The notes under the pieces are model-generated. The model saw only the letters and a list, made by a program, of their open reading frames with translations, was not told where the DNA came from and did not search any database. Positions 542 to 49,975 of a stretch of DNA of 58,341 nucleotides are shown here, in pieces (position 1 is the stretch's first letter; each line of letters starts with the position of its first letter). The DNA comes from Candidatus Moraniibacteriota bacterium (lineage in GTDB: Bacteria; Patescibacteriota; Minisyncoccia; Moranbacterales; UBA11712). The stretch is from the NCBI GenBank assembly GCA_026396255.1, contig JAPLXD010000006.1, positions 1 to 58,341 on the forward strand, given 5' to 3'. The position numbers and the translations under genes were made by a program.

Positions 542-1984
542 TTAGATTTCACGATTTTGACTTTCACGAAACTCCCCACGCACCAATTCCGACGCGTTAT
601 GATGCGGGGCAATGCCGACGGGGATTTTTTTATTGGAGTGAAAAATGACTTTCTTTTGGGTGCGGGTGTGGGCGAGGTATTTTCCCATCCAAGGTTCGAC
701 CTTTCCCTTTCTCGCTGGCGCTCGAAATTCCTCAAGGTCGAACCTTTTGTCAACTAGAACTTCAACGACTTTGCCGATATATTTTTTGTTATTTTCCAGC
801 GCGGTTTTGGAGAGAATGTCCGTAAGCATTTTATCGCGTCTTTCTTTTTCTTTCTTGGAAACATTGTCTTTCATTTTCCAGGCAAGGGTTTGCGGGCGGG
901 GGGAGTATTGGGCGATATAGGCCATATCAAATTTCATCTCGCGAAGAAGCTTGGCCGTGTTTTCAAACTGTTTTTTCGTTTCGCCCGGAAAACCGACGAT
1001 GATATCGGTGGAGATACAAGGTTCAACCTTAGCTGTACAGCTAAGGTTGAACCTTTGAAAAGATCCACGGATTTTTTTGATTAGTCTTTTATAATGTTCA
1101 ATTGAATATTTGCGGTTCATCTTGCGAAGAATTTCGTTGTCTCCAGATTGAGCGGGCAGGGAGATATATTCACAGATTTTTTTGCTTTTGGCGATTATTT
1201 CAATCAGATCGTCAGACATATCTTTCGGGTGCGAGGTGAGAAAAGAGAGCCAGAATTTTCCGGGGATTTTTTCGATGAGGCGGAGAAGTTTTGGAAAATT
1301 TATTTTTTTTTCGCTCCCTCGCCTTGATAAGGAGAGGGTTGGGGTGAGGTTTTTATAGCTGTTCACGTTTTGTCCAAGCAATATAATTTCTTTGCATCCC
1401 TTTTTCACCAAGCTTTTTACTTCTTTCAGGATGTCATCAGCGGGGCGGGAATATTCGCGACCTCTCGCAAAGGGAACGACGCAATAGGCGCAGAAGTTAT
1501 TGCAGCCGGTCATGATTGGTATATATGCTGTGTATGAGTTTGTATATTTGAGTGTTATGTCTAGATAATCAAAGCACTCTCCCTTTACTAAAGGGAGAGT
1601 CGAAGAGAGATTTTTTCTATTGAATTGCTTATTCAAAATCCCCCTTAGTCCCCCTTTAAGAAAGGGGGAGACCGCTTGTGGGAAACTCTTAATTTCGCAA
1701 AACAGATCTACTTTTCCTTTGAGCCTTCGCTGGACGTCTTTTCTATGGGAGAGGCAGCCGGTCAAGACAATTTTTTTATCCAGATATTTTTTCTTTATAT
1801 TATTGATCTGTCCATAAACGCGGTCTTCGGCGGATTGGCGGACGCCGCAAGTGACGAATACGATTAAATTAGCCTCGTCAATTGAAGAGGCTAATTTTAA
1901 TTTATATTTTTCGAGATAAGTGGCGATTCTTTCGGCGTCAGACTGGTTCATTTGACAACCGAAGACTTTGACGAAATATTTCAT
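542..1984 (-). CDS. miaB: MiaB-family tRNA methylthiotransferase (radical SAM), carrying several in-frame inserts
   Basis: N-terminal UPF0004 block VFGCQMNQSDAE..VTCGVRQSAEDR, radical-SAM CNNFCAYCVVP, and a TRAM-like C-terminus. 480 aa. Confidence 0.85.
   Translation of the reverse strand: MKYFVKVFGCQMNQSDAERIATYLEKYKLKLASSIDEANLIVFVTCGVRQSAEDRVYGQINNIKKKYLDKKIVLTGCLSHRKDVQRRLKGKVDLFCEIKSFPQAVSPFLKGGLRGILNKQFNRKNLSSTLPLVKGECFDYLDITLKYTNSYTAYIPIMTGCNNFCAYCVVPFARGREYSRPADDILKEVKSLVKKGCKEIILLGQNVNSYKNLTPTLSLSRRGSEKKINFPKLLRLIEKIPGKFWLSFLTSHPKDMSDDLIEIIAKSKKICEYISLPAQSGDNEILRKMNRKYSIEHYKRLIKKIRGSFQRFNLSCTAKVEPCISTDIIVGFPGETKKQFENTAKLLREMKFDMAYIAQYSPRPQTLAWKMKDNVSKKEKERRDKMLTDILSKTALENNKKYIGKVVEVLVDKRFDLEEFRAPARKGKVEPWMGKYLAHTRTQKKVIFHSNKKIPVGIAPHHNASELVRGEFRESQNREI
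691..746. repeat. 56-bp element with inverted termini AAGGTTCGACCTT/AAGGTCGAACCTT (copy 1, inside miaB)
   Basis: The ends match the copy at 49976-50031 (19 and 20 nt identical) around a 17-nt divergent core. Translated in miaB as FDLEEFRAPARKGKVEPW. Confidence 0.8.
1018..1055. repeat. perfect 38-bp palindrome inside miaB
   Basis: AAGGTTCAACCTTAGCTGT/ACAGCTAAGGTTGAACCTT. Both strands encode FNLSCTAKVEP. Confidence 0.9.
1316..1338. repeat. short interrupted hairpin inside miaB
   Basis: CCCTC-G-CCTT-GAT-AAGG-A-GAGGG, lying in the LSLSRRGSE insert. Confidence 0.5.
1576..1600. repeat. 25-bp palindrome inside miaB
   Basis: ACTCTCCCTTTA-C-TAAAGGGAGAGT. Translated as STLPLVKGE. Confidence 0.8.
1635..1670. 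repeat. C5T3/A3G5 hairpin element inside miaB (antisense to the gene)
   Basis: AAAATCCCCCTTAGTCCCCCTTTAAGAAAGGGGGAG is 33/36 identical to uvrA 50481-50516. Confidence 0.85.
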
Positions 1985-3780
1985 TTTTTATCCTCAATTT
2001 CTTTCTGGATCTTTTCCAAAAACTTCTCAACCTTTATTGCGCCGAGATCGCCTTTTTCGCGGTCGCGAACGGCGACGGATTTGGCTTTCATTTCTTTCTC
2101 GCCGATGATGAGCATATAATTCACTTTCTGGTTCTGGGCGGTGCGGATTCTTTTTCCGAGGGATTCGCCGGTTTTGTTCATCGCGACACGAATATTTTTT
2201 TCTTGGAGTTTTTTCAAAATTTCTTTTCCGAATTTTTCAAACTTTTCCGAAACGGGAATGACTTCAACTTGAACAGGGGAGAGCCAAAGCGGGAAATGGC
2301 CGGCGGTTTGTTCAACTAAAAAGGCGAAAAATCGGTCGAATGATCCCATAATCGCCTTATGGATAATAACCGGCCTTTCTTTCTTTCCTTTTTCGTTTGT
2401 GAACTCGAGATTAAATCGTTCAGGCATATAGAAATCCATTTGAACAGTTGCGATTGAATCTTCTTTTCCGTGGACATTTTTGATTTGAACGTCAATTTTC
2501 GGTCCATAGAAAGCTGCTTCGCCGGCAACTTCTTCGAATTTTACTCCCGATTTTTTCAGGGCTGCGCGGGCAATTCGTGCCGATTCCTCCCAGAGCTTTC
2601 TGTTTTTTATGTCACCATATTTTTCCTTATCATTGAAATCGGGGAGTGATAGTCGAAACCAATAGCCTGTAATGTTGAAATCTTCGTAAACTTTTTTGAA
2701 TAAGCTTAAAACTTTTTCAAGCTCGCTCTGGCTTTGTTCATGCGAGCAATAAATATGAGAGTCATTTTGGGAAAAGCAGCGTGCCCGAATAAGTCCGGTG
2801 AGGACGCCCGATCTTTCAAAGCGATGCAGGAGACTGAAATCAGAATAGCGGACTGGCAAATCGCGATAGCTTTTCGAATCATTGCGAAACATAATGTGAT
2901 GATGGGGGCAATTCATTGGTTTCAAATAATATCTTTCTCCCTCAATATCAATTGGGTTATACATATCATCCTTGTAGTGTGCCAAGTGGCCGGATTTTTT
3001 GTAAAGATTTTCATGCGCGAGAACGGGCGTGTATACAAAATCATAGCCGTTTTGTTTTTCCAATTCGTACATATAATCCTCGAGCTTTTTCCGAATATAA
3101 GCGCCGTTGGGAAGCCAAAGTGGCAATCCTTTTCCCACTTCATCCGAAATCATAAATAGTTTCAGATCTTTCCCGAGTTTTCGATGATCTCTTTTTTCCG
3201 CTTCGGCCATCATGGCAAGATATTGCCGGAGTTCTTTGTCGGTTGCGAAAGCTACGCCATAGATGCGCTGGAGCATCTTGTTTTTTTCGTCGCCCTTCCA
3301 GTAGGCGCCGGAAATCTTGGTGAGCTTGAAAGCCTTCGGGCTTATTTCTCCGGTCGAATCGATGTGAGGACCAGCGCAAAGATCGACAAAATTGCCGGTT
3401 CGATAAATCGAAACAGTTTTTCCGCCAGAGGCGGATCCGCCTTTGGCGGATGCTCTACTACTTTCCTCTTTTGCGATATCTTTGATCAATTCGACCTTCA
3501 GCGGCTGCGCGGCTTTTTTGAAATCTTCCAAAGCTTCGGCAATCGGCAGATTGGCTTTTTCAAATTTGAAATTGGCCTTGATGATGCTCTGCATTTTTTC
3601 TTCGAGGATCGCGAGATCTTCAGGAATCAGTGTACGCGGGAGGTCAAAGTCATAATAGAATCCGTTTTCGATGGCCGGTCCGATGCCAAAGCGGGCGTCG
3701 GGGAACATTTCAAAAACGGCTGCGGCCAGGACGTGGGAGAGGGAGTGCCGAAGAAGCTCTGTTTTTGGTTGTTTTTGCAT
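1981..3780 (-). CDS. thrS: threonyl-tRNA synthetase, short form without the N-terminal TGS domain
   Basis: 599 aa. Starts at the SAD-like block LLRHSLSHVLAAA, with class II core (YLKPMNCPHH, FSLLHRFERSG) and an anticodon-binding C-terminus. Its stop overlaps the miaB start by 4 nt (ATGA). Confidence 0.93.
   Translation of the reverse strand: MQKQPKTELLRHSLSHVLAAAVFEMFPDARFGIGPAIENGFYYDFDLPRTLIPEDLAILEEKMQSIIKANFKFEKANLPIAEALEDFKKAAQPLKVELIKDIAKEESSRASAKGGSASGGKTVSIYRTGNFVDLCAGPHIDSTGEISPKAFKLTKISGAYWKGDEKNKMLQRIYGVAFATDKELRQYLAMMAEAEKRDHRKLGKDLKLFMISDEVGKGLPLWLPNGAYIRKKLEDYMYELEKQNGYDFVYTPVLAHENLYKKSGHLAHYKDDMYNPIDIEGERYYLKPMNCPHHHIMFRNDSKSYRDLPVRYSDFSLLHRFERSGVLTGLIRARCFSQNDSHIYCSHEQSQSELEKVLSLFKKVYEDFNITGYWFRLSLPDFNDKEKYGDIKNRKLWEESARIARAALKKSGVKFEEVAGEAAFYGPKIDVQIKNVHGKEDSIATVQMDFYMPERFNLEFTNEKGKKERPVIIHKAIMGSFDRFFAFLVEQTAGHFPLWLSPVQVEVIPVSEKFEKFGKEILKKLQEKNIRVAMNKTGESLGKRIRTAQNQKVNYMLIIGEKEMKAKSVAVRDREKGDLGAIKVEKFLEKIQKEIEDKK
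3421..3450. repeat. 30-bp near-perfect palindrome in frame in thrS
   Basis: TCCGCCAGAGGCGGATCCGCCTTTGGCGGA, encoding part of SAKGGSASGG. A second copy lies at 13741-13770. Confidence 0.85.
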
Positions 3781-5884: not shown

Positions 5885-5953
5885 CCCCCACACCAATTTT
5901 CGTCACTATTTATTTGAATTCCTATATATTACAAATAGAATTGGTGTAGGGGG
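5885..5953. repeat. CCCC[AG]CACCAATT inverted-repeat element (copy 1)
   Basis: CCCCCACACCAATT ... AATTGGTGTAGGGGG with a ~40-nt AT-rich loop. It abuts the rplY promoter -35. Confidence 0.75.
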
Positions 5954-9201: not shown

Positions 9202-10479
9202 ATGAAAGGTTATATTTCGAAAATAACAATATATTTTTGTTTGCTTGTTTTGTTTTTGGCGTCCGATGTATCTTTGGCTGCCCAGAATGATGCCCAGCAG
9301 CAGGATTTGAAAATGAAAATAAATATTCTGCGGAACCAGATCCAGGAATATCAAAAAGAAATTGATGTCAAAAATAACCAAGCAGAAACTCTTCAGGGCG
9401 ATATCGACGCTATCGAAAAAGACATTGCAAAAATAAAGCTTGAAATGCAGGAGACTCAGTTGGTGATCCAAGGCCTTGATCTTGAGATCGCGGACAAAGA
9501 AGCGGGCATAGCCGCGATGCAGAAAGAGGTGGAGGCCAAAAAGAAAGTCCTCGCGCAATTTATGCAGGAATTGTATGAAAACGGCAATGCTACGTCCGTG
9601 GAATTGGCCCTGGGAAACAATACTTTTTCAGACTACTTTTTTCAGGCGGACAGCCTCGAATCATTTGAGGAGAGGACGAGGGAGATATATGACCGGTTCG
9701 TTTTTCTTCGTGAAGGTATCCAGAAAGAAAAGGATGATCTACTCTCTCAAAAAGAAGAACAGATGAATCTCAGAGCGATGCAAAACGACCAGCAAAATAC
9801 TTTGGATTCGCAAGAGCAGGCAAAAAATTCTCTTTTGGGCAAAACAAAGAATGACAAGCAGGCGCTTTCGGATCAGATGGGAAAATTGCAAGATCAGCTG
9901 AACGCTTTGCAGGCGCTCGGTGAGCCGATCAATATTGATGAAGCAATCAGCGCCGCCAAATATGCATCCGGTTTCACGCATGTTGCGCCGGAATTTTTGC
10001 TCGGCGTCTTGCGCGTCGAATCGGGACTTGGAACGAATGTCGGGGGAGGGAGATATAAAACTGACATGAATCCGGCCCAGTGGGACACTTTCAAAAAAAT
10101 TTGCGGTGAACTCGGAGTTGATCCGAACAGCGTGCCGGTGTCGCGCCGGGCTTGCTACAATTCAAATTCGAAGGACGGATGCGGGGGATGGGGAGGAGCG
10201 ATGGGGCCGGGACAATTCATGCCGACCACCTGGCTCGGATACAAAAGCAAGGTGGAAAAACTCACAGGGAATAGTCCGGCGAACCCGTGGGATCTCAAGG
10301 ACTCCCTTGTCGCGATGGGTCTCAAGCTGGTGGCGGTGAACGGCGTGACGGCGGGCGACCGGTCGGCTTGGGCGAAAGCGGCGGCGATGTATCTCGCGGG
10401 CGGCAACTGGGAAAACTATTCGTGGTATTCGGATCGGGTGTTGTCTTATGCCGACGGATTCAAAAAAATAATGAAATAA
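9202..10479 (+). CDS. secreted coiled-coil protein with C-terminal SLT_2-type lytic transglycosylase domain
   Basis: Signal/anchor sequence, a ~200-aa Q/E/K-rich coiled coil, then ESGLG...GAMGPGQFMPTTW. Confidence 0.75.
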   Translation: MKGYISKITIYFCLLVLFLASDVSLAAQNDAQQQDLKMKINILRNQIQEYQKEIDVKNNQAETLQGDIDAIEKDIAKIKLEMQETQLVIQGLDLEIADKEAGIAAMQKEVEAKKKVLAQFMQELYENGNATSVELALGNNTFSDYFFQADSLESFEERTREIYDRFVFLREGIQKEKDDLLSQKEEQMNLRAMQNDQQNTLDSQEQAKNSLLGKTKNDKQALSDQMGKLQDQLNALQALGEPINIDEAISAAKYASGFTHVAPEFLLGVLRVESGLGTNVGGGRYKTDMNPAQWDTFKKICGELGVDPNSVPVSRRACYNSNSKDGCGGWGGAMGPGQFMPTTWLGYKSKVEKLTGNSPANPWDLKDSLVAMGLKLVAVNGVTAGDRSAWAKAAAMYLAGGNWENYSWYSDRVLSYADGFKKIMK

Positions 10480-10480
10480 A

Positions 10481-10558
10481 TCCCCGCACTAAATTTTAGC
10501 AAAACTATTTTATTATAATGGTCATAATTGCCTTCGGGTATTGAATTTAGTGCGGAGA
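10481..10558. repeat. CCCCGCAC-type inverted-repeat element (copy 2)
   Basis: TCCCCGCACTAAATT ... AATTTAGTGCGGA, starting 2 nt after the stop codon. Confidence 0.7.
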
Positions 10559-10600
10559 TAAATTTGTCAAGTCTTTTTGGAAAAATATTCCTTCGCATCA

Positions 10601-12122: not shown

Positions 12123-12385
12123 TTTTTAATAAATGTGATGTAAAAGAAAAACGAAAATCAAAAATCAAAAAGTTCCTTAAAAAAACAAAATAAAAAAATT
12201 GGGTGATCTAAACACCAAAAAAGTGTTTTATCAAAAAAGTAAGTGTCCTTTCTTTTTGTCCTTCGGGGCAGTCTGGCAAACCATCCGCCTGAGTTTTTTC
12301 AAAAAACTTGGGCGGATTTTGTTTACCCTGTTAAATAATTTCGCAAGACGAAATTACTGTCTCGCAGTATTTAACAGGGTGAAGG

Positions 12386-13797: not shown

Positions 13798-14805
13798 GTG
13801 TTTATCAAAAAAATTGGAATTGATCTTGGGACGGCCAATACTTTGGTATTTCTGCCGGGTGAAGGAATTGTTGTCAATGAGCCGTCGGTTGTGGCAATTT
13901 CACTCGTGGACAACAAGATTATGGCGGTCGGCAACGAAGCCAAAGAGATGCTTGGCCGCACCCCGGAAGCAATCACGGCCATGAGGCCACTAAAAGACGG
14001 TGTGATTGCGGATTATCGGATCACGGAAGCGATGCTTCGCTATTTTATCAACAAGGTGGCGGGCGGTTTTCGGCTGTTCCGTCCCGAGGTGATGGTTTCC
14101 ATTCCGGCCGGTGTCACTTCAACGGAACGGCGGGCCGTTGTCGACGCAACCGTGAAGGCGGGGGCGAAGACCGCCTATGTTGTCAAAGAGCCGATCCTGG
14201 CGGCGATTGGGGCGGGTATTCCGATCAACAGTGCAGCGGGGAATATGATTGTTGATATTGGCGGCGGGACCAGCGAAGTGGCGATTATCTCTTTGGGGGG
14301 AGTCGTGGCGGCGCACAGCGCGCGAGTTGGCGGAAACAAGATTGACCAAGCGATTGCCGATTTCATCAAAAAGAAACACGGGCTTGCCATCGGGGAACGG
14401 ACGGCGGAAGAAATCAAGATCACAATCGGCAGCGCGATTCCGCAGATGAAGGACGAATATATGGAAGTGCGCGGACGCGATCTCATCGCGGGCTTGCCGA
14501 AAACGATCCGGGTTTCGGCCAACGAAATCACGGAAGCGATCCAGGATGAGTTGCGCGAAATCATCAATGCGATCAAAAAGGTTTTGCAGGAAACTCCGCC
14601 GGAGCTCGCCGCTGATGTGATCGACAAAGGGATGATCCTTTCGGGCGGCGGCGCTTTGCTTCGCCATCTTGACCAGCTGATCTCGAAGACTACAGGTGTG
14701 CCGTGCTATGTCGCGGATGATCCTCTTTTCTGCGTGGTGAAGGGAACGGGAATCGCGCTCGAGAATTTGGATATGTACAAAAGAACGATAATGCTGACAA
14801 AATAA
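13798..14805 (+). CDS. mreB: rod-shape actin homologue MreB (paralogue 1)
   Basis: IGIDLGTANTLV, DIGGGTSEVAIISLGG and GGGALL. GTG start. Confidence 0.92.
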   Translation: MFIKKIGIDLGTANTLVFLPGEGIVVNEPSVVAISLVDNKIMAVGNEAKEMLGRTPEAITAMRPLKDGVIADYRITEAMLRYFINKVAGGFRLFRPEVMVSIPAGVTSTERRAVVDATVKAGAKTAYVVKEPILAAIGAGIPINSAAGNMIVDIGGGTSEVAIISLGGVVAAHSARVGGNKIDQAIADFIKKKHGLAIGERTAEEIKITIGSAIPQMKDEYMEVRGRDLIAGLPKTIRVSANEITEAIQDELREIINAIKKVLQETPPELAADVIDKGMILSGGGALLRHLDQLISKTTGVPCYVADDPLFCVVKGTGIALENLDMYKRTIMLTK

Positions 14806-22687: not shown

Positions 22688-23740
22688 ATGCTTTCAAGAA
22701 TTTTTGGAAGATTTTCAAAGGATATCGGGATTGACCTGGGGACGGCCAATACTCTTGTGTATGTCGCCGGACGAGGAATTGTGATCAATGAGCCATCGGT
22801 CGTGGCCGTCAACCAGAAAACCGGGCAAATTCTGGCCATCGGTGTGGAGGCCAAAAAAATGGTCGGCAAAACTCCCGCTCATATTGTCGCGACCCGGCCG
22901 CTCGTGGACGGAGTCATTTCGGACTTCGAAGTGACGGAGCAGATGCTTCGCTATTTCATTGAAAAAGTCCACAAAGACAGTTTTGCTCTGATGCCGCGGC
23001 CACAAGTGGTCATCGGAATTCCTTCAGGCGTGACGGAAGTGGAAAAGCGGGCGGTAGTGGACGCGGCGATGAGCGCCGGCGCCCGGCGGGCGTACCTTGT
23101 TGATGAGCCGATGGCGGCCGCGATCGGAGCGCGTCTCCCGATCCAGGAAGCGTCCGGGAATATGATCGTTGATATCGGCGGAGGGACGACGGAAATCGCC
23201 GTGATTTCTCTTGGCGGGGTGGTCGTTTGCCGGAGTTTGCGTATTGCCGGGGATGAAATGAATGAAGACATCATCCGCTATGCCCGCGATGAATTCAACC
23301 TTCTCCTGGGACTGAAGACCGCCGAAGACATCAAAATCGGGATCGGAAGCGCCTATGAGCTCGATGAAGTTTTGGAAATGCCGATGCGCGGACGCGATCT
23401 GGTGACGGGTCTGCCGAAAGAAGTGATCGTGAATGATTCACAGATCCGGGAAGCCATTTTCCGTTCCATAAAAATAATCGTCAACAACATCAAATCGACG
23501 GTCGAAGAAACTCCGCCGGAACTTCTTTCCGACATTATGCAAAGAGGCATCATTCTGGCGGGCGGGGGCAGCTTGATCCGGGGGCTCGAAAAATTGATCG
23601 CCGAGCAGACCGATATCCCCACGCGGGTGATGGACGATCCCTTGACGGCGGTGGCGCGGGGAACGGGAATCATCCTGGAACATCTCGATGAGCTGAAAAA
23701 CGTTTTGGCCGAAACGCAGTATGACAAAGTTTCTTTTTAA
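22688..23740 (+). CDS. mreB: rod-shape actin homologue MreB (paralogue 2, heads mreBCD-mrdA)
   Basis: IGIDLGTANTLVYV, DIGGGTTEIAVISLGG and GGGSLI. Confidence 0.92.
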   Translation: MLSRIFGRFSKDIGIDLGTANTLVYVAGRGIVINEPSVVAVNQKTGQILAIGVEAKKMVGKTPAHIVATRPLVDGVISDFEVTEQMLRYFIEKVHKDSFALMPRPQVVIGIPSGVTEVEKRAVVDAAMSAGARRAYLVDEPMAAAIGARLPIQEASGNMIVDIGGGTTEIAVISLGGVVVCRSLRIAGDEMNEDIIRYARDEFNLLLGLKTAEDIKIGIGSAYELDEVLEMPMRGRDLVTGLPKEVIVNDSQIREAIFRSIKIIVNNIKSTVEETPPELLSDIMQRGIILAGGGSLIRGLEKLIAEQTDIPTRVMDDPLTAVARGTGIILEHLDELKNVLAETQYDKVSF

Positions 23741-27613: not shown

Positions 27614-27742
27614 GTTCAATGCTCCGTTCGTCAAAGTGCCGCTTTTCGGGAAACCGGGAAGTGGCATTTTTCTTTTTACCATCATTGACAACACTTTCTT
27701 TTTCGACTATCATTCTAATCGTTATCGTTATTAGGAATAAAA

Positions 27743-27842
27743 CCCCGCACCAATTTTTTTCGCAATATTCATCTTGTTCAAACTTAAATATATTTTTCTG
27801 TATTTATGTCTACATGATGTTGCGATGAGAATTTGTGCGGGG
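27743..27842. repeat. CCCCGCACCAATT inverted-repeat element (copy 3)
   Basis: CCCCGCACCAATT ... AATTTGTGCGGGG followed by CAAGC. It ends 12 nt before the greA ATG. Confidence 0.7.
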
Positions 27843-27854
27843 CAAGCAAATCAT

Positions 27855-28426: not shown

Positions 28427-29902
28427 ATGCTTGACGAAATAAAGGAAATAAAACTGAAAAAACTGGAAAATCTGCGAAAAGCGGGTCTTGATCCGTATCC
28501 GGAAAAAACCAGCCGGACGATGGTGAACAAAGAAGCGTTGGAAAAATTTGATGAATTGCAGAGCAAAGAAATAATCTTGGTTGGAAGAGTGAAGTCTCTC
28601 CGTCCGATGGGCGGGTCGGCTTTTGCCCACATTGAGAATGAATCAGGGAAAATCCAGATTTTTTTGAGCAAAAAAAACATTGATCCGGAAAAATATAAGC
28701 TTTTTGTCGATTCGATCGAGCTTGGCGATTTTGTCGAGGTCAAGGGGAAATTATTCAAGACCAAAACGGAAGAAATCACCCTTGAAGTGTCGGATTGGAA
28801 AATATTGAGCAAAAGTCTGGCACCCGTGCCGACGGAACATTTTGGGGTGAAAGATACGGAAGAACTTCTGCGCCGGCGCTATCTGGATCTCATGATGAAT
28901 TCCGAAACGCGCGAGCTTTTCCGCAAGAAAAACATTTTTTGGCAAACAGCCCGAACTTTTCTCGCTAAAAAAGGCTTTTTGGAAGTGCAGACTCCCGTTC
29001 TTGAAAATATTCCCGGCGGAGCCGAAGCGGAGCCGTTCGTCACGCATCACAACGCGCTTGATCGCGACTATTTCATGCGCATTTCGCTGGAATTGCCGCT
29101 CAAAAGGCTGCTGGTCGGCGGATACGAAAGAGTCTTCGAGATCGGCCGGGTTTTTCGCAACGAGGGCATTGACAGAGAGCATTTGCAGGAATATGACACG
29201 CTCGAATATTATGAAGCCTATGCGGATCTGAAAAAGGGGATGAAGCTGGTTGAAAAATTGTTCAAGGAAATTGTGAGGAATATCTTGGAGATCGAATCTC
29301 CAAGGGGAGATTCGATCTCCCTTGCAACGGAATACGAGGGAAACAAAATCAATTGGGGAGAAAAATGGGAAACAAAAGACTATTTCAAGCTTCTCAAGCA
29401 AGAGACGGGAATCGATCTCGATAAAGAAATTTCTGTCGCCGATCTCCAGAAGAAAGCGGACGAGTTGGGGATCAAATATGAAAAAAACTATGGCAAGGGG
29501 CGGATGATCGATACGATATACAAAAAAACCGTGCGGCCGAAATTGATCCAACCTTGTTTTTTGGTCGGCCATCCGGTCGAAGTATCGCCGCTGGCCAAAA
29601 AAGATCCCAAAGACCCCCGAAAAGTTTTGCGCCTTCAGGTAATTGCCTGCGCCTCGGAGCTTGGAAACGGTTTTGCGGAGCTGAACGACCCGGTTGACCA
29701 GCGCGCCAGATTTTCCGACCAAATGAAACTTCGCGCCGAAGGGGACACAGAAGCGCAAATGCTCGATGAAGATTTTGTCGAAGCGCTTGAATATGGCATG
29801 CCTCCAGCGTTTGGTTTCGGCTTTTCGGAAAGATTGTTTGCGCTTTTGATGAACAAATCGGTGCGAGAAACAGTCATCTTCCCGCCGATGAAAGAGAAAT
29901 AA
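28427..29902 (+). CDS. lysS: lysyl-tRNA synthetase, class II
   Basis: OB-fold N-domain, RVFRNEGIDREHLQEYDTLEYYEAY, and GFGFSERL. Confidence 0.95.
   Translation: MLDEIKEIKLKKLENLRKAGLDPYPEKTSRTMVNKEALEKFDELQSKEIILVGRVKSLRPMGGSAFAHIENESGKIQIFLSKKNIDPEKYKLFVDSIELGDFVEVKGKLFKTKTEEITLEVSDWKILSKSLAPVPTEHFGVKDTEELLRRRYLDLMMNSETRELFRKKNIFWQTARTFLAKKGFLEVQTPVLENIPGGAEAEPFVTHHNALDRDYFMRISLELPLKRLLVGGYERVFEIGRVFRNEGIDREHLQEYDTLEYYEAYADLKKGMKLVEKLFKEIVRNILEIESPRGDSISLATEYEGNKINWGEKWETKDYFKLLKQETGIDLDKEISVADLQKKADELGIKYEKNYGKGRMIDTIYKKTVRPKLIQPCFLVGHPVEVSPLAKKDPKDPRKVLRLQVIACASELGNGFAELNDPVDQRARFSDQMKLRAEGDTEAQMLDEDFVEALEYGMPPAFGFGFSERLFALLMNKSVRETVIFPPMKEK
29287..29320. repeat. twin-palindrome element in frame in lysS
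   Basis: GGAGATCGAATCTCC-aagg-GGAGATTCGATCTCC. Translated as EIESPRGDSIS. Confidence 0.9.
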
Positions 29903-31422: not shown

Positions 31423-32614
31423 GAAAATCAATCTTTCACCAATAAAAGAAATGGAACTCCGGGCATCGCGCATTCCCGGAGTTGTTTCGCTCGCCCAAGG
31501 CGTGCCGTCTTTTGACACGCCCGAGCCGATCAAGCGGGCGGCCATCGAGGCAATCGAGAAGGGAAAAGTGGCCAAATATTCACTCTCACCCGGCCTTCTG
31601 GAGTTACGCGAGGTGATCGCGCACAATCTTGAAAAAGAAAACAAGTTTTATGACTTTGAAGAAGAAGTTATCGTGACGGCCGGGTCGATCGAAGCGATCA
31701 CGGCGACGATGCTGGCAATTCTTTCTCCGGGAGATGAAGTTTTGATTCCCGATCCGACATATACATCCTATCAGCCGGCTATCAAGGTGGCGGGTGGGGT
31801 GCCGGTCTTTGTCCCGCTGGATGAAAAGAAGCACTGGGCGTTTGATATTGCGGAATTGGAAAAAAGAATCACTCCAAAAACGAAAGCCCTGCTTTTTTGC
31901 AATCCGAACAATCCGACGGGGACGATTTTCACGCGCAATCAGCTTCACGCGGTGGCGCAGCTCGCGATCAAGCACAATTTCTATATTCTGAGCGATGAAG
32001 TTTACAAAGATTTTGTTTTTGAGGAAAATGGAGGTTCGACCTCCACGGGGAGGTCGAACCTCCAACGTTTGTACTCCCTCGCCCAGATGCGCGGGATTCG
32101 GGACAGATTGATCTATATCTTCTCTTTTTCCAAAGCCTACGCGATGACGGGCTGGCGGATTGCGTATCTTGCAACTCATCACGATCTCGCGAAGAAGATC
32201 CTCGGCGTGCACGACGCGCTGGTCACGTGCGCTCCCGTAGTCTCACAGTATGCAGCTCTTGCGGCTCTCGAAATGGCGGACGAGGAACTGGCGAAATATC
32301 ACGCGATATATAAAAACAGGCGGGATCTGATCTGCCGGCGGCTCGATAAGCTGAAAAATATATTTGAATATCAAAAACCGGACAGTGCCTATTTCGTTTT
32401 TCCGCGCATCAAAGAAGATATTTTGCAAAAAATCACTCCAAGTGGCGGTTCAAAGGAATTTGCGATAGAATTGCTGGAGAAGGCCAAAGTGGCGACGGTT
32501 CCCGGATCAGCCTTCGGTCCGGTCGGGGAGAATCATATCCGGATGTGTTTTGGGCGCAGTGAAGAGGATATCAACTTGGCGTTTGATCGGATGGAAAAAT
32601 TTTTCTCAAAATAA
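31415..32614 (+). CDS. class I/II PLP-dependent aminotransferase (aspartate-aminotransferase-like)
   Basis: NPNNPTG and SFSKAYAMTGWRIAY (PLP lysine). Overlaps the serS stop by 8 nt. Confidence 0.88.
   Translation: MDKKINLSPIKEMELRASRIPGVVSLAQGVPSFDTPEPIKRAAIEAIEKGKVAKYSLSPGLLELREVIAHNLEKENKFYDFEEEVIVTAGSIEAITATMLAILSPGDEVLIPDPTYTSYQPAIKVAGGVPVFVPLDEKKHWAFDIAELEKRITPKTKALLFCNPNNPTGTIFTRNQLHAVAQLAIKHNFYILSDEVYKDFVFEENGGSTSTGRSNLQRLYSLAQMRGIRDRLIYIFSFSKAYAMTGWRIAYLATHHDLAKKILGVHDALVTCAPVVSQYAALAALEMADEELAKYHAIYKNRRDLICRRLDKLKNIFEYQKPDSAYFVFPRIKEDILQKITPSGGSKEFAIELLEKAKVATVPGSAFGPVGENHIRMCFGRSEEDINLAFDRMEKFFSK
32030..32063. repeat. twin-palindrome element in frame in the aminotransferase gene
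   Basis: GGAGGTTCGACCTCC-acgg-GGAGGTCGAACCTCC. Translated as GGSTSTGRSNLQ. Confidence 0.9.
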
Positions 32615-36055: not shown

Positions 36056-36173
36056 AGATTTTTGTTTATTTTTTATTTATCTCAAGAGTGCTTACGCCCA
36101 CATTATACAACAACCAAGAAAAGTTATCCACAAGATACTATTGCACTAGTTTTTGTGGTATAATTTCAGTACA

Positions 36174-36253
36174 CCCCCACACCAATTCTAATTATGAATC
36201 AGATTTTTTCAATTATTCAACGAAGAAGATGATAACTGGAATTGGTGTGGGGG
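36174..36253. repeat. CCCCCACACCAATTC inverted-repeat element (copy 4, perfect 15-bp arms)
   Basis: CCCCCACACCAATTC-N50-GAATTGGTGTGGGGG. An extended -10-like TGGTATAAT at 36156-36164 lies just upstream. Confidence 0.8.
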
Positions 36254-36332
36254 TAAAAGACAAAAAGAAAATCCGGAAAAAGCTGAAGCGTATTCAAAGC
36301 GCCGGTTTTGTTTGAGTTAAAAAAAATTAAAA

Positions 36333-41032: not shown

Positions 41033-43564
41033 ATGGATGCTTATAGTTTAAATTTAATATTATACCCTCTGGCCGGGCTGGCCGCGATTGTCTGTTTTGC
41101 CTCGGGCGCTCTTTTGGTATTCAAAAGTTTCATGGGTTTTCGCGGTCTGGTCACGCGGTCGCTCAATATGGATCTCGACGTGGTGAAAGTGAGCCGGCCG
41201 ATGAAGCGGGAAGCGCAAGGCGAACAGCAGCAACAGCCCAAATCGGAAAAAGAATTGATCTCGGTGATGGAGCATCTTTTCGCGAGTCTCGGGAACATCA
41301 AAGAAAAATCAAACATTTGGCATCGAATTATATATGGAGACGCGGTCGTAGCGCTCGAAATGGCCAATCCCGCCGACAATGACGAAATTTCCTTCTACGT
41401 CGGGGCGCCGAAAAAATTCATCAACATTGTCGAGCGGCAGATTCACAGCTTTTATCCCAAGGCCTCGATTGAACGGGTGAAAGACTACAATATTTTTTCT
41501 CCCGGCAGTTTCACAGCGGCTTCAAGCCTCACTCTCAAGGATAAGCATCATTTTCCGATCCGGACATATCAGACACTGGAAGCCGATCCTCTCAACAACA
41601 TCACGAACGTGCTTGGAAAGTTCGACGAGAAAAAGGAAGGGGCGGCCATCCAGCTTCTCATGAAACCGGCGCGGAGCGGCTGGCGGCAAAAAGGGAAGCA
41701 AGTCGCCCACAAAATGCAGCAGGGCCGGCAACTTTCGGATGTCAAAAGGGATACGATCGTGCGCCAGGTCGGCCGCGGACTGTTGAGCCTTTTTCATCAG
41801 AAAAAAGACAAACAGGAAGATATTTTGAAGCAAAACAAAGATGTCATCCAACTTACACCGGAAGAGCAGGAGGTGGTGAAAAAAATCGAAGGCAAAGCCG
41901 GAAAATCCGGTTTCAGCGTGAATATCCGTCTGGTGGCTTCGGCGCTCACTCAGGAGCGCTCGGAAGTGATTCTTTCCGAGCTCGAAAATGGCTTTATACA
42001 ATATGAAAATCCGGGACTAAACAGCTTCAAGGTTTTGCGCGAAGACAAGCGGCGTCCGAAGAATATCGCTTTTGATTTCATCTTCCGCAACTTTCGGAGC
42101 GACCAAAGTTTTGTTCTGTCTTCAGAGGAAATTGCCAGCGTTTTTCATTTTCCGCTGTTCTCGACCGAAACGCCTAAGATCGCCTGGCTCAAGGCCCGCA
42201 CGGCCGCCCCGCCTTCAAACATTTCGAAAGATGGCATCACGCTCGGCTTCAACGACTATCGCGGAGTGGAAACGGTGATTCGGCACGCAGAGGACGATCG
42301 ACGGCGCCACTTCTATGTCGTCGGACAAACCGGAACCGGAAAATCAACGATGATGGAAGAAATGGTGAAACAGGACATCAAAAACGGAAAAGGCGTGTGC
42401 GTTATCGATCCCCACGGAGAGTTTGTTGATCATGTGCTTGAATGTGTTCCGAAAGAACGGGCGGAGGACGTGATCTATTTCGATCCGGCGGACATGGAGC
42501 GGCCGTATGGGCTCAATATGCTTGAATTTGACCAAAACAAGCCGGAGCAAAAAACTTTTGTCATCAATGAAATGATCAATATCTTTGACAAGCTCTATGA
42601 TCTGCGCCAGACGGGCGGCCCGATGTTTGAACAATATATGCGCAACGCGGCCCTGCTCGTGATGGAACACCCGGATTCCGGTTCGACCTTGATGGAGATT
42701 CCGCGAGTCCTGGCCGATGAAGAATTTCGGCATTTGAAACTGTCGCATTGCACCAATCCGGTCGTCAAAAATTTCTGGGAAAAAGAAGCGGAAAAGGCGG
42801 GCGGGGAAGCGGCTCTCGCCAATATGGTCCCGTATATCACTTCGAAACTCACCCAGTTTATTTCGAACGATATGATGCGGCCGATCATCGCTCAGGAGAA
42901 ATCGACAATCAACTTTCGCCAGGCGATGGACAACCAGCAAATTATTCTAGTGAACCTTTCAAAGGGAAAGATTGGCGAAATCAACGCCAATCTCCTGGGA
43001 ATGATCATCGTTGGAAAAATATTAATCTCGGCACTTTCGCGGGTGGATATTTCAGAAAGCGAGCGCAAAGATTTTTATCTCTATATCGATGAATTTCAAA
43101 ACTTCACGACCGATTCGATCGCCCAGATTCTTTCGGAAGCACGAAAATATCGGCTGGCTCTAGTCATTGCTCATCAATTCATCGCCCAACTCAAAGAAGA
43201 AATTTCCAAGGCGGTTTTTGGAAACGTGGGATCGATTTGCTCATTTCGGGTGGGGGCGGAAGACGCGGAATTTCTGCAAAAGCAGTTTGAGCCGGTATTC
43301 GATGCGAATGATCTCATGAACGTGGACAATCACAACTGTTTCATGAAACTTTTGATCGCGAGCCAGGTCGCTTCGCCCTTCAATATGAAAACCTATCCGC
43401 CGACGGCCGGCTCGAAAGAGATCGCGGAAGCCATCAAGGAGCTTTCCAAATTGAAGTACGGGCGCAATCGTGATATAGTGAATGAAGAGATCTTGAAAAA
43501 ATCAAGTTTTGTTTCCGCTCCCGCTTCGGCTGACGCTTTTGATATGGGAGAAAAACCGATGTAA
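41033..43564 (+). CDS. membrane-anchored FtsK/HerA-superfamily ATPase, TraD/VirD4 (coupling-protein)-like
   Basis: N-terminal TM helix, Walker A VVGQTGTGKST, IDPHGEF, Walker B LYIDEFQNF, and ARKYRLALVIAHQFIAQL (TraG-D_C-like). Confidence 0.75.
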   Translation: MDAYSLNLILYPLAGLAAIVCFASGALLVFKSFMGFRGLVTRSLNMDLDVVKVSRPMKREAQGEQQQQPKSEKELISVMEHLFASLGNIKEKSNIWHRIIYGDAVVALEMANPADNDEISFYVGAPKKFINIVERQIHSFYPKASIERVKDYNIFSPGSFTAASSLTLKDKHHFPIRTYQTLEADPLNNITNVLGKFDEKKEGAAIQLLMKPARSGWRQKGKQVAHKMQQGRQLSDVKRDTIVRQVGRGLLSLFHQKKDKQEDILKQNKDVIQLTPEEQEVVKKIEGKAGKSGFSVNIRLVASALTQERSEVILSELENGFIQYENPGLNSFKVLREDKRRPKNIAFDFIFRNFRSDQSFVLSSEEIASVFHFPLFSTETPKIAWLKARTAAPPSNISKDGITLGFNDYRGVETVIRHAEDDRRRHFYVVGQTGTGKSTMMEEMVKQDIKNGKGVCVIDPHGEFVDHVLECVPKERAEDVIYFDPADMERPYGLNMLEFDQNKPEQKTFVINEMINIFDKLYDLRQTGGPMFEQYMRNAALLVMEHPDSGSTLMEIPRVLADEEFRHLKLSHCTNPVVKNFWEKEAEKAGGEAALANMVPYITSKLTQFISNDMMRPIIAQEKSTINFRQAMDNQQIILVNLSKGKIGEINANLLGMIIVGKILISALSRVDISESERKDFYLYIDEFQNFTTDSIAQILSEARKYRLALVIAHQFIAQLKEEISKAVFGNVGSICSFRVGAEDAEFLQKQFEPVFDANDLMNVDNHNCFMKLLIASQVASPFNMKTYPPTAGSKEIAEAIKELSKLKYGRNRDIVNEEILKKSSFVSAPASADAFDMGEKPM

Positions 43565-44358: not shown

Positions 44359-45564
44359 TTATTTCAGTCTCCCAATTATCTTATTTTTCTCACTATATCC
44401 AATTTTCATCTTGGACGCAAGCGTTTGCATAGTGGCAATTGTTTGGTCATATGTCGGGCGATCGACGGGGTAGGGGATGAAATCTTTTCCGCCGTGGGCG
44501 AAGGAATAACGGGCCGGATCTTCATAGGAAGCTTTCGCGCCGTAAATAACTTCCGCTGTCAGCGCCAAAGCTCTGATGGTCTTTGGCCCGACGCCTTTCA
44601 AAGATAAAAGCTGTTCATAATTTTTCGGCTTGACTACATTCACTTCGTATAATATTTTTTCCAAATACTTGCTTTTGGTGAAATCCTCCGTGATGACGGG
44701 CAACACCTTGAAATCGCGGTCATGCAGGTGTATTTTGGTGAGTTCTTGATTCTCGTTTCCAACCGAGATCACTTCGCTTTGAGCTGTTGAGTGGTCGCGC
44801 AGAATGGAGATCGGATCTCCATCGGGGAGATCCGATCTCCGAGGAGTCGCGTATTTGCTCAATAATGCTAGATCTTTCATGAGAGTATTATAGCTTCCTT
44901 GAACGAGCTCTGTGCTGATTTTTTGGGTGTTTTCGCTTTCTCTGGCGGTCATATTGAGCCCGGTGTGCTGGCCGTCCGAAATAATCCCGCTGTGCGGTTC
45001 AATCACTAGGTTCTTTACTTCGTCCGAGAACCAGTGATAGCGTCGCGCCGTCACCTCTTTTTCGTTCATGCCTTGTTGAACGACGGCCCACGTGCCGTTG
45101 CGTGAGAAAAAGAAGCAGTGATGATAAATCTGGAACCCGTCCTGGACGAGGGAAGAATCGACTTTCGCCGCCATCCGGGAATTGTATTCGAGCGAATTTA
45201 TTTTTTCCTGCGAGAGTTCGGCTCGCGCGCCGAAGAGTGAAATTTGCTCCGGAGTTTTGAGCGACGCTTTGCCTTTCCCGCCACAAATATATATTCCCAA
45301 ATCTCTTTCCTCGCCGCGGATAGCCTCTTTCAAAGCCGCGGTTAAAATAGTGATGAGTCCCGACGCGTTCCAGTCAAAAGCGAGCACCGTTCCGAGCGCC
45401 TGAAACCAGACCGGATCGGCGATCCGTTTCACAAACTCATCCGGCCCATATTCGGCAATGATGACCCGTGACATCTCCCGTCCCAGTTTCACCATCCGTT
45501 CGAACAGCCATTTGGGGCACTTGCCATAGTCAAGAGTGAAGGTGGCAATTCCGCGCTTGAACAT
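44359..45564 (-). CDS. DUF763-family protein with helix-hairpin-helix-like C-terminal motif
   Basis: N-terminus GKCPKWLFERMVKLG...DPVWFQALGTVLAFDWNASG is typical of DUF763 as I recall it. LLSLKGVGPKTIRALAL is HhH-like. Confidence 0.7.
   Translation of the reverse strand: MFKRGIATFTLDYGKCPKWLFERMVKLGREMSRVIIAEYGPDEFVKRIADPVWFQALGTVLAFDWNASGLITILTAALKEAIRGEERDLGIYICGGKGKASLKTPEQISLFGARAELSQEKINSLEYNSRMAAKVDSSLVQDGFQIYHHCFFFSRNGTWAVVQQGMNEKEVTARRYHWFSDEVKNLVIEPHSGIISDGQHTGLNMTARESENTQKISTELVQGSYNTLMKDLALLSKYATPRRSDLPDGDPISILRDHSTAQSEVISVGNENQELTKIHLHDRDFKVLPVITEDFTKSKYLEKILYEVNVVKPKNYEQLLSLKGVGPKTIRALALTAEVIYGAKASYEDPARYSFAHGGKDFIPYPVDRPTYDQTIATMQTLASKMKIGYSEKNKIIGRLK
44816..44850. repeat. twin-palindrome element in frame in the DUF763 gene
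   Basis: GGAGATCGGATCTCC-atcgg-GGAGATCCGATCTCC. Translated on the minus strand as RRSDLPDGDPIS. Confidence 0.9.
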
Positions 45565-45645: not shown

Positions 45646-47685
45646 ATGAAATTTCAAATATCTTCCAAGTTTAAACCCGATGGAGACCAACCGCGTGCGA
45701 TCAAGCAATTGACCGCGGGTCTTCGGCGTGGGGATAAGTTTCAGACGCTTCTCGGTGTGACCGGGTCGGGAAAGACTTTTACTATTGCCAACGTCATTGA
45801 AAATGTGCGAAAACCCACGCTGGTGATTGCGCCGAACAAGACGCTGGCGGCGCAACTCGCGCAGGAATTTCGGACATTTTTCCCCAAAAACGCGGTGGAA
45901 TATTTTGTTTCCTATTATGATTACTATCAGCCGGAAGCGTATATTTCTTCATCCGACACATATATCGAAAAAGAATCCCAGATCAACGACGAGATTGACC
46001 GGCTACGCCACGCGGCCACGGTGGCGGTGATGTCGCGGCGTGACGTGGTCATTGTTGCTTCGGTATCGTGCATATACGGTCTCGGTTCACCCGAATACTA
46101 TTCCGAAATTTCTTTGAGCCTCAAAATCGGCGAAGCGATTGACCGGCAAAAGCTCATCAAAGACCTCACGGAGATGCATTTTCTCCGCTCGGAGCATTTG
46201 TCCCGCGGAAAATTTCGCTCTCACGGAGAGACGGTTGAAATAATGTCTCCATCCCGGGAAATCGTGACAAGAATAGAACTCAAGAATGATAAAATAGCGA
46301 AAATCAGCGAATATGATTTTTTGACCGGCGAAGCGCTGGGAAACCTGGAAAAAGCTTTGATCTATCCGGCGAAGCACTTTGTTGTTCCGGAGCCGGTGAT
46401 GCAGGACGCTCTCCTGGAAATTGAAAAAGAACTCGACGAGCGCGTGGTATATTTCAAAAAGAACAATAAATTGCTCGAAGCCGAGAGGATATACCGCCGG
46501 ACAAAGCAGGATCTCGAAATGATGCGGGAAATCGGATACTGCAACGGAATTGAAAACTATTCCCGATATCTGACCGGCCGCGCGCCGGGTGAAGCGCCGT
46601 ATACCTTGATCGATTATTTTGCCCGCCTCGACTCGCCGTCTCGGCGAGGCTGGGCCAAAAATTTCCTCATTGTTATTGACGAATCACACGTGACCGTTCC
46701 CCAGCTCAACGGGATGTATAACGGCGACCACGCGCGCAAATATGCGCTGATTGACAACGGTTTCCGCCTTCCGAGCGCTTATGACAACCGGCCATTAAAG
46801 TTTAAAGAGTTTGAGGATAAGATTAGTCAAGTGATATTTACATCCGCTACACCGGGAAATTATGAATTAGTGCAAAGTGCAAAGTGCAAAGTGCAAAATT
46901 ACAGTTCAAAATTAAAAGTTGATGAAAGATGCGTAGTCGAGCAGATAATTAGACCTACAGGGTTAGTAGATCCAGAGTTAGTGATTAAACCAGCGAAGGG
47001 GCAAGTTAAAGATGTAATAAATGAAGTGAAAAAAGTAATTGAAAAGAAAGAAAGAGTATTAATCACGACGCTCACCAAAAAAATGTCCGAAGATCTTTCG
47101 GATTTTCTCAAAGAAAGCCAGATAAAAGCCGAATATTTGCATTCAGGAGTGGATACGATGGAGCGGGTGCGCATTTTGGAAAGTTTACGCCGAGGAAAAT
47201 TCGATGTGCTTGTAGGCGTGAACTTGCTCCGCGAAGGCTTGGATTTGCCGGAAGTTTCGCTCGTCGCTATTCTTGACGCGGACAAAGAAGGGTTTTTGCG
47301 CAGTGAAACTTCACTCATCCAGACCATCGGCCGGGCGGCGCGGAATATTTCCGGACGGGTGATTTTATACGCCGACCATATCACCGGCTCGATGAAACGG
47401 GCGATTGACGAGACAAATCGCCGGCGCGAAACGCAGACGAAATACAATAAAAAACATCACATCACGCCGCAAACGATCAAGAAAAAAATCGAATCAATCA
47501 TCGATCACGAACTGAAACCCGAAATCCCGCGCGAATTTGTGAAATTGGAATCGCTTGAGGATATCGCCGGCTATATCAAGCAAAAAGAAACCGAAATGAA
47601 AACCGTCGCCCGGAATATGGAATTCGAAAAAGCGGCGGTGATTCGGGATGAGATAATTCAGCTCCGGAAGTTGCAGATGAAGTAA
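45646..47685 (+). CDS. uvrB: excinuclease ABC subunit B
   Basis: FKPDGDQPRAI, GVTGSGKT, helicase motifs, and a C-terminal UVR domain EFEKAAVIRDEIIQLRK. Confidence 0.95.
   Translation: MKFQISSKFKPDGDQPRAIKQLTAGLRRGDKFQTLLGVTGSGKTFTIANVIENVRKPTLVIAPNKTLAAQLAQEFRTFFPKNAVEYFVSYYDYYQPEAYISSSDTYIEKESQINDEIDRLRHAATVAVMSRRDVVIVASVSCIYGLGSPEYYSEISLSLKIGEAIDRQKLIKDLTEMHFLRSEHLSRGKFRSHGETVEIMSPSREIVTRIELKNDKIAKISEYDFLTGEALGNLEKALIYPAKHFVVPEPVMQDALLEIEKELDERVVYFKKNNKLLEAERIYRRTKQDLEMMREIGYCNGIENYSRYLTGRAPGEAPYTLIDYFARLDSPSRRGWAKNFLIVIDESHVTVPQLNGMYNGDHARKYALIDNGFRLPSAYDNRPLKFKEFEDKISQVIFTSATPGNYELVQSAKCKVQNYSSKLKVDERCVVEQIIRPTGLVDPELVIKPAKGQVKDVINEVKKVIEKKERVLITTLTKKMSEDLSDFLKESQIKAEYLHSGVDTMERVRILESLRRGKFDVLVGVNLLREGLDLPEVSLVAILDADKEGFLRSETSLIQTIGRAARNISGRVILYADHITGSMKRAIDETNRRRETQTKYNKKHHITPQTIKKKIESIIDHELKPEIPREFVKLESLEDIAGYIKQKETEMKTVARNMEFEKAAVIRDEIIQLRKLQMK
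46869..46896 (+). repeat. AGTGCAA x4 heptanucleotide tandem repeat in frame in uvrB
   Basis: Four perfect tandem copies lie within an AT-rich patch (46793-47063). Confidence 0.9.
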
Positions 47686-49920: not shown

Positions 49921-49975
49921 CAAGCCTTAAATGGGGCATTTTTGTGTTAGGTAAAGAATCATTCAGGGAAAATCA

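Follow-up and report, generated by a model that had tools for sequence, protein, structure and literature searches.

The window analyzed here, a stretch of 58,341 nucleotides (positions 1 to 58,341 of contig JAPLXD010000006.1, assembly GCA_026396255.1), is a contig of a metagenome-assembled genome (MAG) from Candidatus Moranbacteria, which belong to the candidate phyla radiation (CPR/Patescibacteria). It contains a miaB gene, called on the minus strand at positions 542 to 1984, that encodes a protein of 480 amino acids with UPF0004 and Radical_SAM domains and an interrupted TRAM region. The product is 100% identical to an NCBI protein named MiaB from a Candidatus Moranbacteria MAG. Its best solved relative is 7MJZ, both by sequence (E = 1.3e-64) and by fold (E = 5e-36, TM 0.71/0.76), and its assignment to MiaB follows from the UPF0004 N-terminal domain, the radical-SAM CxxxCxxC core and the MiaB-like fold; the AlphaFold model has a mean pLDDT of 76.6. 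An intact C-terminal TRAM domain is missing from this set of features: the Pfam TRAM family was undetected in the called protein, which is consistent both with a C-terminal truncation and with the splitting of the domain by an insert (element E, below). The initial annotation of this DNA had singled out the gene because it seemed to stay open despite five separate hairpin-forming insertions, and these palindromic elements and their relatives are the subject of this report.

All five palindromes are present at the positions originally given for them, form stable single-stranded folds and far exceed chance expectation, and the peptides quoted for them are correct. Element E (691 to 746) is a 56-nt twin mini-hairpin whose perfect 13-nt arms, AAGGTTCGACCTT and AAGGTCGAACCTT, are separated by 30 nt; it encodes RFDLEEFRAPARKGKVEPW at the tip of a TRAM beta-hairpin. 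Element D (1018 to 1055), a perfect 38-nt palindrome (19+19) that belongs to the family of E in a TTCAA variant, encodes RFNLSCTAKVEP after the helix of residues 295 to 316. Element C (1316 to 1338) is a hairpin composed of a pyrimidine run, a triloop and a purine run, with a 10-bp stem that contains one mismatch; the whole insert spans approximately 1307 to 1351 (NLTPTLSLSRRGSEK) and lies in a loop following GQNVNSY. The last two segments, A and B, make up a composite (1576 to 1670) in the linker joining the UPF0004 domain to the radical-SAM domain, with hairpins at 1576 to 1600 (stem 12+12) and 1649 to 1669 (within 1635 to 1670; stem 9+9) and a central pairing. A and B co-occur in every orthologue bearing them and fold together as a three-hairpin unit; because they always occur together and as one folding unit, the five segments, real as they all are, represent four insertion sites and not the five separate insertions first proposed. 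Folded as single-stranded DNA (ssDNA) and compared with shuffled sequences, E, D, C and A+B (1570 to 1675) gave z scores of −4.5, −9.5, −2.4 and −5.9, respectively, element C being the weakest fold, equaled by 6 of 200 shuffles. The window as a whole contains 14 perfect hairpins with a stem of at least 10 (0 to 3 in shuffles) and 22 with a stem of at least 9 (2.3 in shuffles), its elements range in size from 23 to 95 nt, and the arm AAGGTTSRACCTT is found at six sites, against 0.37 matches expected.

The reading frame is indeed open across the five segments, as the initial annotation had claimed, but it is broken by a sixth insert. Codon alignment with orthologues revealed a 40-nt insert on the minus strand at 574 to 613, after the residues ...KKIPVG, which belongs to the AATTGGTGYGGGGG inverted-repeat family as a solo end and has no hairpin of its own (ssDNA folding, z = +1.3). 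Past this insert, the called open reading frame (ORF) continues into an unrelated 24-residue tail that ends with the stop codon at 542 to 544. The conserved C terminus of miaB, SFVKVKIVKSKAFGLEGEI, is intact in another frame at 499 to 573, where the same codon alignment places the conserved end of TRAM (SFVKVKIVKSKAFGLEGEIKWGSN and a stop codon, minus strand), so that the last ~19 of the conserved residues do not share the frame of the called ORF. The frame break could be a very recent truncation, a 1-nt consensus error or a segment that is bypassed. Within the window, the AATTGGTGYGGGGG family has 8 matches, against 0.9 expected, and forms inverted pairs in intergenic DNA at 5885 to 5952, 27742 to 27843, 36173 to 36254 and approximately 49841 to 49921. 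These repeats follow the pattern CCCC(R)CAC(C/T)AAWT ... AWTT(G/A)GTG(Y)GGGG with arms 40 to 70 nt apart, occur also at 10474 to 10565 and, the solo end at the 3' end of miaB aside, are always placed between genes.

A different kind of palindrome lies in the part of miaB that encodes the conserved N-terminal domain. The segment at 1866 to 1897 (KLASSIDEANL) is a native coding palindrome with an 11-bp stem and is not inserted. The hairpin is kept with different, compensating stems in the related loci L082, L083, L004, L002 and L012, and is not kept in L081, L001 or L204 to L206; its pairing is partly forced by the A-S...E-A codons.

Comparison with homologous proteins identified the segments as insertions and not as conserved ancestral residues. 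Relative to 7MJZ, the miaB product has 8 extra residues at C, 4+6 at D and a net gain of 10 in the A/B linker, and many close miaB orthologues lack these segments, in agreement with the earlier suggestion that they have no counterpart in canonical MiaB. We aligned the 76 closest MiaB sequences (61 to 75% identity by BLASTP) with MAFFT and measured lengths between conserved anchors; length variation in this set is confined to the insertion positions. At site C, 24 of 74 orthologues are in a 6-residue base state and the rest have 10 to 55 residues. At site D, the base state is 14 residues long and is seen in 24 of 66; at site E 18 of 66 have 5 or 12 residues (the base state), with up to 42 in the others. 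Each of the four hot spots is found among orthologues in a short base state, with the same element, or with unrelated repeat peptides. Filled hot spots carry at least 10 unrelated types of repeat-derived peptide, including RFDL..KVEPW, KSLALRNSES..KPSFE, SPLIPLF..LPFAKGG, VRPHSSLAARS, CHPE..EGS, NTKYQIPDTK and IARSEATKQS..LRYARNDK. In P0013, an RFDL-type insert has lost its right arm, and a SLAL-type peptide comes after the remaining left half; this is likely a case of nesting or partial replacement. At site E of L001, a mini-hairpin, CCCCGAC-GAAAA-GTCGGGG, is nested in the spacer of the twin hairpin. On the AlphaFold model of the miaB product, the inserts fall on loops or low-confidence stretches (residues 117 to 138, 216 to 218 and 421 to 425), insert E lengthens the TRAM beta-hairpin at its tip and D follows the helix; the initial annotation had asked for a structural check of whether the inserts lie in surface loops.

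Related elements had also been reported for uvrA, uvrC, thrS, lysS, dnaX and intergenic DNA, and we located copies in each. A non-coding copy of element E (49976 to 50031) has the same arms as E and matches it at 82% over 60 nt; it stops 11 nt short of the likely ATG of uvrA. Within uvrA, an A/B-family composite (50484 to 50568) encodes NPPQSPFKKGGGASSSPLKKEGLGEDF; its DNA has the same orientation as in miaB though the two genes are on opposite strands. The uvrC gene carries a D-like twin hairpin, AAAGTTCAACTTT..., at 53172 to 53207 and a second twin hairpin, TGGAGATTCGATCTCC / GGAGATCGAATCTCCA, at 53812 to 53848 in the linker before the RNase H-like domain. In lysS, the twin hairpin GGAGATCGAATCTCC / GGAGATTCGATCTCC (29287 to 29320) lies exactly at a 9-residue insert relative to PDB 3A74, and in thrS a 30-nt doublet, TCCGCC-NNN-GGCGGA twice (3421 to 3450), lies within an 11-codon insert relative to two orthologues. 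Further twin hairpins are found in an aminotransferase gene (TGGAGGTTCGACCTCC / GGAGGTCGAACCTCCA, 32029 to 32064) and in a DUF763 gene (GGAGATCGGATCTCC / GGAGATCCGATCTCC, 44806 to 44840); these two genes and lysS each have one twin hairpin of the form GGAG(A/G)T-YCR-A(T/C)CTCC. The copy in dnaX (56648 to 56672) is a single hairpin, GGACAT-CCG-ATGTCC, built on the T-YCR-A core, and in other strains a doublet of its family occupies site C of miaB. The core, seen as TTCGA, TTCAA or TCCGA, is common to all triloop twin hairpins, and the outer stems around it vary (AAGG, AAAG, GGAGA, GGAGG, GGACA). Seven of the eight twin hairpins in the window are genic.

Two other repeats in the window lie within or close to coding sequence. 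In uvrA, a low-complexity AAATCC-type repeat at 50837 to 50894 encodes QFQNPNVKSNPKSKIQKS, and a similar repeat occupies site C of miaB in both L082 and L206. A 62-nt inverted repeat with 16-nt arms (12322 to 12383) lies in a long N-terminal extension of a murA-like ORF; since the EPSP_synthase domain begins at residue 88 of that ORF, the true start probably lies downstream of the repeat.

To look for further copies, as the initial annotation had proposed, we scanned public metagenome contigs with the pattern AAGGTTCRACCTT-N(0-30)-AAGGTYGAACCTT, which describes the twin hairpin of the D/E family. The contigs hit by the scan, at least 120 and most of them from groundwater, hold at least 127 copies, of which at least 121 are distinct. 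Among the matches listed, 64 of 121 distinct copies lie within ORFs of at least 150 amino acids, on both strands and in all three phases (28/24/14), and the genic copies give rise to three peptide series (RFDL..RSNL, QGSTL..GRTL and KVRP..KVEP). A clear Pfam family was assigned to 18 of 20 sampled host ORFs. These include SecA, a murD-like Mur ligase, a class I aminoacyl-tRNA synthetase (aaRS), ArgRS, GatB (two), TPR proteins (three), UvrC (two), DnaG, TsaD, RecG, a beta-CASP RNase, DinB and UvrB, together with a UvrD-like helicase-nuclease that carries two copies. The other element families of the window recur in the CPR loci that were fetched, mostly within long ORFs. Both twin-hairpin patterns gave zero matches in IMG/VR viral contigs. 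Two related contigs, L195 and L202, are separated by hairpin-bearing indels of 20 and 49 nt (around positions 700 to 860 in L202).

Several observations bear on how the copies relate to one another and on what is conserved in them. L082, whose MiaB is 73% identical to that of the window, has the identical 44-nt copy at sites D and E, unlike both copies in the window, which indicates that either a single active variant was inserted recently or the copies were converted one to the other. In L125, two identical 37-nt copies occur in different phases within one TPR gene. The two sides of the variable arm position, R in the left arm and Y in the right arm, are complementary in 115 of the 121 distinct copies listed (63 G-C, 52 A-T, 6 mismatched), and two spacers were found with both arm types. 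In hairpin B the stem is fixed and the triloop varies (AGT, AGG, AAA, AGA). In a comparison among the window (WIN), L081, L082 and L083, whose pairs are not independent, 92% of the pairs inside A/B use one and the same codon for an identical residue, compared with 58% in the rest of miaB. The hairpin nucleotides are conserved beyond the need of the protein.

The spacer between the two units of a twin hairpin is usually 10 to 15 nt long and, in most copies, not palindromic. Target-site duplications were absent, with no direct repeat of 3 to 8 nt flanking any of 125 copies. In the flank profile, 52% of ends have a C at position −1, and the element ends show neither GTAG/CGTC nor any other tetranucleotide. 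We also considered whether the elements are open in all six frames as a general property, and dropped this idea as not significant relative to random windows: the GGAGATCGAATCTCC family and the thrS doublet are open in 6/6 frames, the CCCCCTTT family in 1 or 2 of 6.

Between close relatives, the inserts behave as cassettes. At C, D or E, a complete cassette distinguishes orthologues that share 94 to 97% identity in the core. Among L204, L205 and L206, which share 95 to 97% DNA identity over 3.4 kb, the GGACATCCGATGTCC doublet at site C is swapped for an AAATCC/ATTACC low-complexity repeat, and at site E the twin hairpin is swapped for a SLAL-type element. Mismatches are denser for 40 to 100 nt into one flank of each replaced cassette, which looks like the footprint of recombination patches importing alternative alleles. 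Away from the cassettes, L204 and L205 differ at the 3' end of thrS (alignment columns 60 to 240) by a gap-free divergent patch with 22 mismatches per 60 nt, in a region of ~99% identity nearby, a sign that members of these populations often recombine homologously with diverged donors.

We favor the reading, with a probability of about 0.72, that the segments represent several families of very short (~25 to 95 nt) non-autonomous hairpin repeats, comparable to REPINs (doublets of REP [repetitive extragenic palindromic] sequences) and to Rickettsia palindromic elements (RPEs), which would be copied at the DNA level, kept in permissive loops and read through as peptide. In the main family, two units of 13 to 15 nt, each with a 5- to 6-bp stem closing the T-YCR-A core, are inverted around a spacer of 0 to 30 nt, as in a REPIN or the hairpin-carrying ends of an IS200/IS605 element, so that the DNA can form either a single long hairpin or two small hairpins. 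Copies would land in, or spread to, many places of a gene-dense genome, and those inside genes would survive where the net length change is divisible by three, where no in-frame stop arises and where the site is a surface loop or domain linker. The ribosome would then read through the surviving copies, giving the protein a loop extension, while the hairpin sequence would be kept or homogenized at the nucleic-acid level and the cassettes at a given loop would be replaced quickly, at least partly via recombination patches between strains. The combination of twin hairpins capable of pairing, a constant loop core with variable stems, the lack of target-site duplication and the presence of singlet remnants suggests structure-specific recognition on single-stranded DNA. 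From these sequence patterns we infer that an enzyme may mobilize ssDNA hairpins, that the inserts are probably translated and that the elements may be selfish.

A number of observations weigh against this reading. No transposase, REP-associated tyrosine transposase (RAYT) or IS200/IS605 TnpA was detected in Pfam scans of ~40 ORFs of the window. When three TnpA sequences from PDB were run by hmmsearch against 5633 ORFs of element-bearing contigs totaling 1.33 Mb, the best E value was 0.13; as 1.33 Mb is about one genome-equivalent, this absence is weak evidence. Genic copies are not enriched for lengths divisible by 3 (36% versus 35%; 23 of 64 genic copies), an expectation that we rejected. 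The arms thus do not mark the inserted unit exactly, and since the palindromes are not themselves multiples of 3, the frame is kept by selection on the net change and not by a property of the element. The net change at site D is only +4 codons for a 38-nt palindrome, and this, together with the arm-to-arm lengths, shows that these are not simple clean insertions. The true ends of the elements are blurred, as junctions become indistinct at 59 to 75% protein identity; the strain comparison at 95 to 97% DNA identity yielded no empty site, the cassettes having been replaced along with a flanking tract, and pairs of related metagenome contigs offered only ambiguous intergenic indels as to insertion boundaries. 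Some element families are closed in most reading frames, the arm covariation may partly reflect two related subfamilies instead of selection, and the orthologue set, being made up of called complete ORFs, is biased toward in-frame cases. Finally, the raised flank divergence at replaced cassettes means that recent turnover need not be fresh transposition.

An alternative is that the host selects the hairpins as functional motifs, and that they are not selfish DNA: they might be uptake or recombination signals, sites for nucleoid or repair proteins, or hairpins that act in mRNA stability, pausing or processing. The conservation of nucleotides above protein need, the constant T-YCR-A core with its variable stems and the arm covariation would all fit this idea, as would the copy 11 nt upstream of the uvrA start and the many hosts with roles in genome maintenance (uvrA/B/C, UvrD-like helicase, recG, dinB, dnaG, dnaX), although that raw list is normalized to neither gene length nor genome content. 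This host bias recalls the bias reported for Neisseria uptake sequences, and CPR bacteria depend on DNA uptake. However, a single uptake or binding signal would be uniform, whereas at least 10 unrelated families occupy the same loops; the hairpins have no terminator-like T runs; and the presence or absence of copies varies between near-identical strains, so that no given copy can be required. We therefore consider host selection clearly improbable as the explanation for the elements and possible as a contributor. Still less probable is an origin in situ, by local slippage or template switching (quasi-palindrome correction) in variable loops with no copying between loci. Several perfect palindromes, such as 1018 to 1055, the native palindrome at 1866 to 1897 and the net length changes that are not clean insertions are in keeping with such a process, but it is largely refuted by the recurrence of 13-nt arms, and even of whole 37- to 56-nt units, in unrelated genes and genomes, and it is contradicted also by the identical copies at two sites of one gene in L082 and by the non-palindromic spacer of most copies.

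The frame-breaking insert at 574 to 613 bears on the idea that the segments are intervening sequences, removed from the transcript or bypassed by the ribosome to give a protein that lacks the extra peptides. Its exact removal would restore the frame together with the conserved, undecayed TRAM C terminus, and hairpins could act as processing signals. Against this stand all the other inserts in miaB, thrS, lysS, uvrA and uvrC, which are in frame and stop-free, as are those in all 76 orthologues, a set biased to complete ORFs. Searches with Rfam gave no intron or ribozyme match: the window yielded a single tRNA at the gathering threshold, and around miaB there were only chance miRNA-like matches far below threshold. 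To our knowledge, no self-splicing intron is anywhere near as small as these elements, and we regard intervening sequences as very unlikely. An artefact of MAG assembly or amplification could be suspected because the window is a MAG contig whose lone frame-breaking insert could conceal a 1-nt consensus error; the occurrence of the same elements at the same loop positions in independent NCBI, JGI, ENA and Logan assemblies excludes this explanation for the elements. A bolder version of the short-hairpin-repeat reading, which we put forward as a speculation unlikely to hold, is that the T-YCR-A twin hairpins constitute a large and so far undescribed CPR superfamily moved by a hairpin-specific enzyme other than an IS200/IS605-type TnpA. 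The elements would then be loop cassettes of essential proteins that recombination exchanges between strains, and could diversify protein surfaces; some copies, for example the frame-breaking 40-nt one, might be tolerated via removal or bypass at the RNA level.

Among known systems, the initial annotation had compared the elements with RPEs, and the likeness extends to behavior and not to family membership, for which neither size nor host agrees. RPEs (Ogata et al. 2000) are summarized in PMC10969869 and PMC6649704; the former describes them as elements of ~100 to 150 bp in ten families, confined to Rickettsia, with 44 genic copies in R. conorii. As portrayed in these summaries, RPEs resemble the elements studied here in being repeated palindromic DNA found in many unrelated housekeeping genes and also in non-coding copies, and in preserving the frame and a recognizable protein at tolerated positions, with 574 to 613 as the exception here. 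On the same descriptions of size and architecture, our elements are set apart by their length of 23 to 95 nt, by their twin triloop and pyrimidine/purine-run hairpins and by their CPR host; in addition, several families compete here for one loop and cassettes turn over between near-identical strains. REPINs (PMC3116915) share with them the two short, inverted, imperfect palindromes around a less conserved spacer, the ability to form one long hairpin or a "clover" of two, the lack of target duplication and the singlet remnants. REPINs are, however, extragenic by definition, and each family adjoins a single-copy RAYT gene (PMC3116915); REP sequences also carry a conserved GTAG or CGTC tetranucleotide at one end (PMC3733652). 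By contrast, most copies in the window and about half of the listed metagenome copies are genic, they lack a GTAG/CGTC tag, and no RAYT/TnpA was found in the sampled DNA.

Bacterial miniature transposable elements with inverted repeats (MITEs) such as ERIC, the Coxiella QMITE and BOX are typically 100 to 400 bp long and mostly intergenic, with terminal inverted repeats and target-site duplications (PMC10969869, PMC5896051). They are likewise non-autonomous inverted-repeat elements, with occasional in-frame fusions (PMC10969869, PMC5896051); unlike classical MITEs, the elements described here have inverted arms but no target duplication, are much smaller and are as a norm genic. The coding palindromes of Nematomorpha mitochondria reach 284 bp, encode native, conserved residues in each arm and do not form dispersed repeat families (PMC6649704); like our elements, they are stable inverted repeats in coding sequence that come and go between species and are preserved at the level of nucleotides (PMC6649704). 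Miniature (PATE-like) derivatives of IS200/IS605 match in their hairpins and in the lack of target duplication, yet no TnpA was found in 1.33 Mb (~one genome-equivalent), and the elements are strand-symmetric, unlike IS608. The small dispersed repeats (SDR) of heterocyst-forming cyanobacteria (Elhai et al. 2008, cited in PMC3116915 and PMC2884548) reportedly consist of units of ~20 to 30 nt that are possibly mobile, sometimes nested and can be genic; in size, possible mobility, nesting and genic placement they would be alike, and phylum and sequences differ. We found no description of such elements in CPR/Patescibacteria in the full-text literature, the coverage of which was incomplete, so that an earlier report may exist.

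In-frame palindromic repeats in housekeeping genes have so far been treated as a peculiarity of Rickettsia, and the elements described here would extend them to an unrelated and very large radiation of ultra-small bacteria. Compared with the Rickettsia elements, they are three to five times smaller and fall into many families, which fill the same protein loops and are swapped between strains of 95 to 97% identity. They would account for much of the length variation and the "low-complexity" loop peptides of CPR proteins, with consequences for annotation, alignment, phylogeny and structure prediction, and could serve as natural maps of insertion-tolerant loops in essential enzymes and as strain-level markers for CPR populations. 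They also pose the question of which enzyme would move hairpins of 30 to 60 nt in genomes with almost no recognizable transposases.

Other features of the window lie outside the palindromic families. A 23-codon mini-ORF at 49345 to 49416 (MEKFEKAAVIRDEIVQLRKVQMG and a stop codon), 1.7 kb downstream of uvrB, duplicates the UVR-motif C terminus of uvrB (47621 to 47685) with 78% nucleotide identity over 65 nt. Two mreB paralogues, at 13798 to 14805 and 22688 to 23740, share an 83-nt stretch of 77% identity, and the second is followed by mreC and a PBP2-like gene. The gene at 41033 to 43564 encodes an 843-amino-acid protein whose coupling-ATPase domain is TrwB/TraG/HerA-like, a hint of type IV secretion or DNA transfer in an organism with so small a genome.

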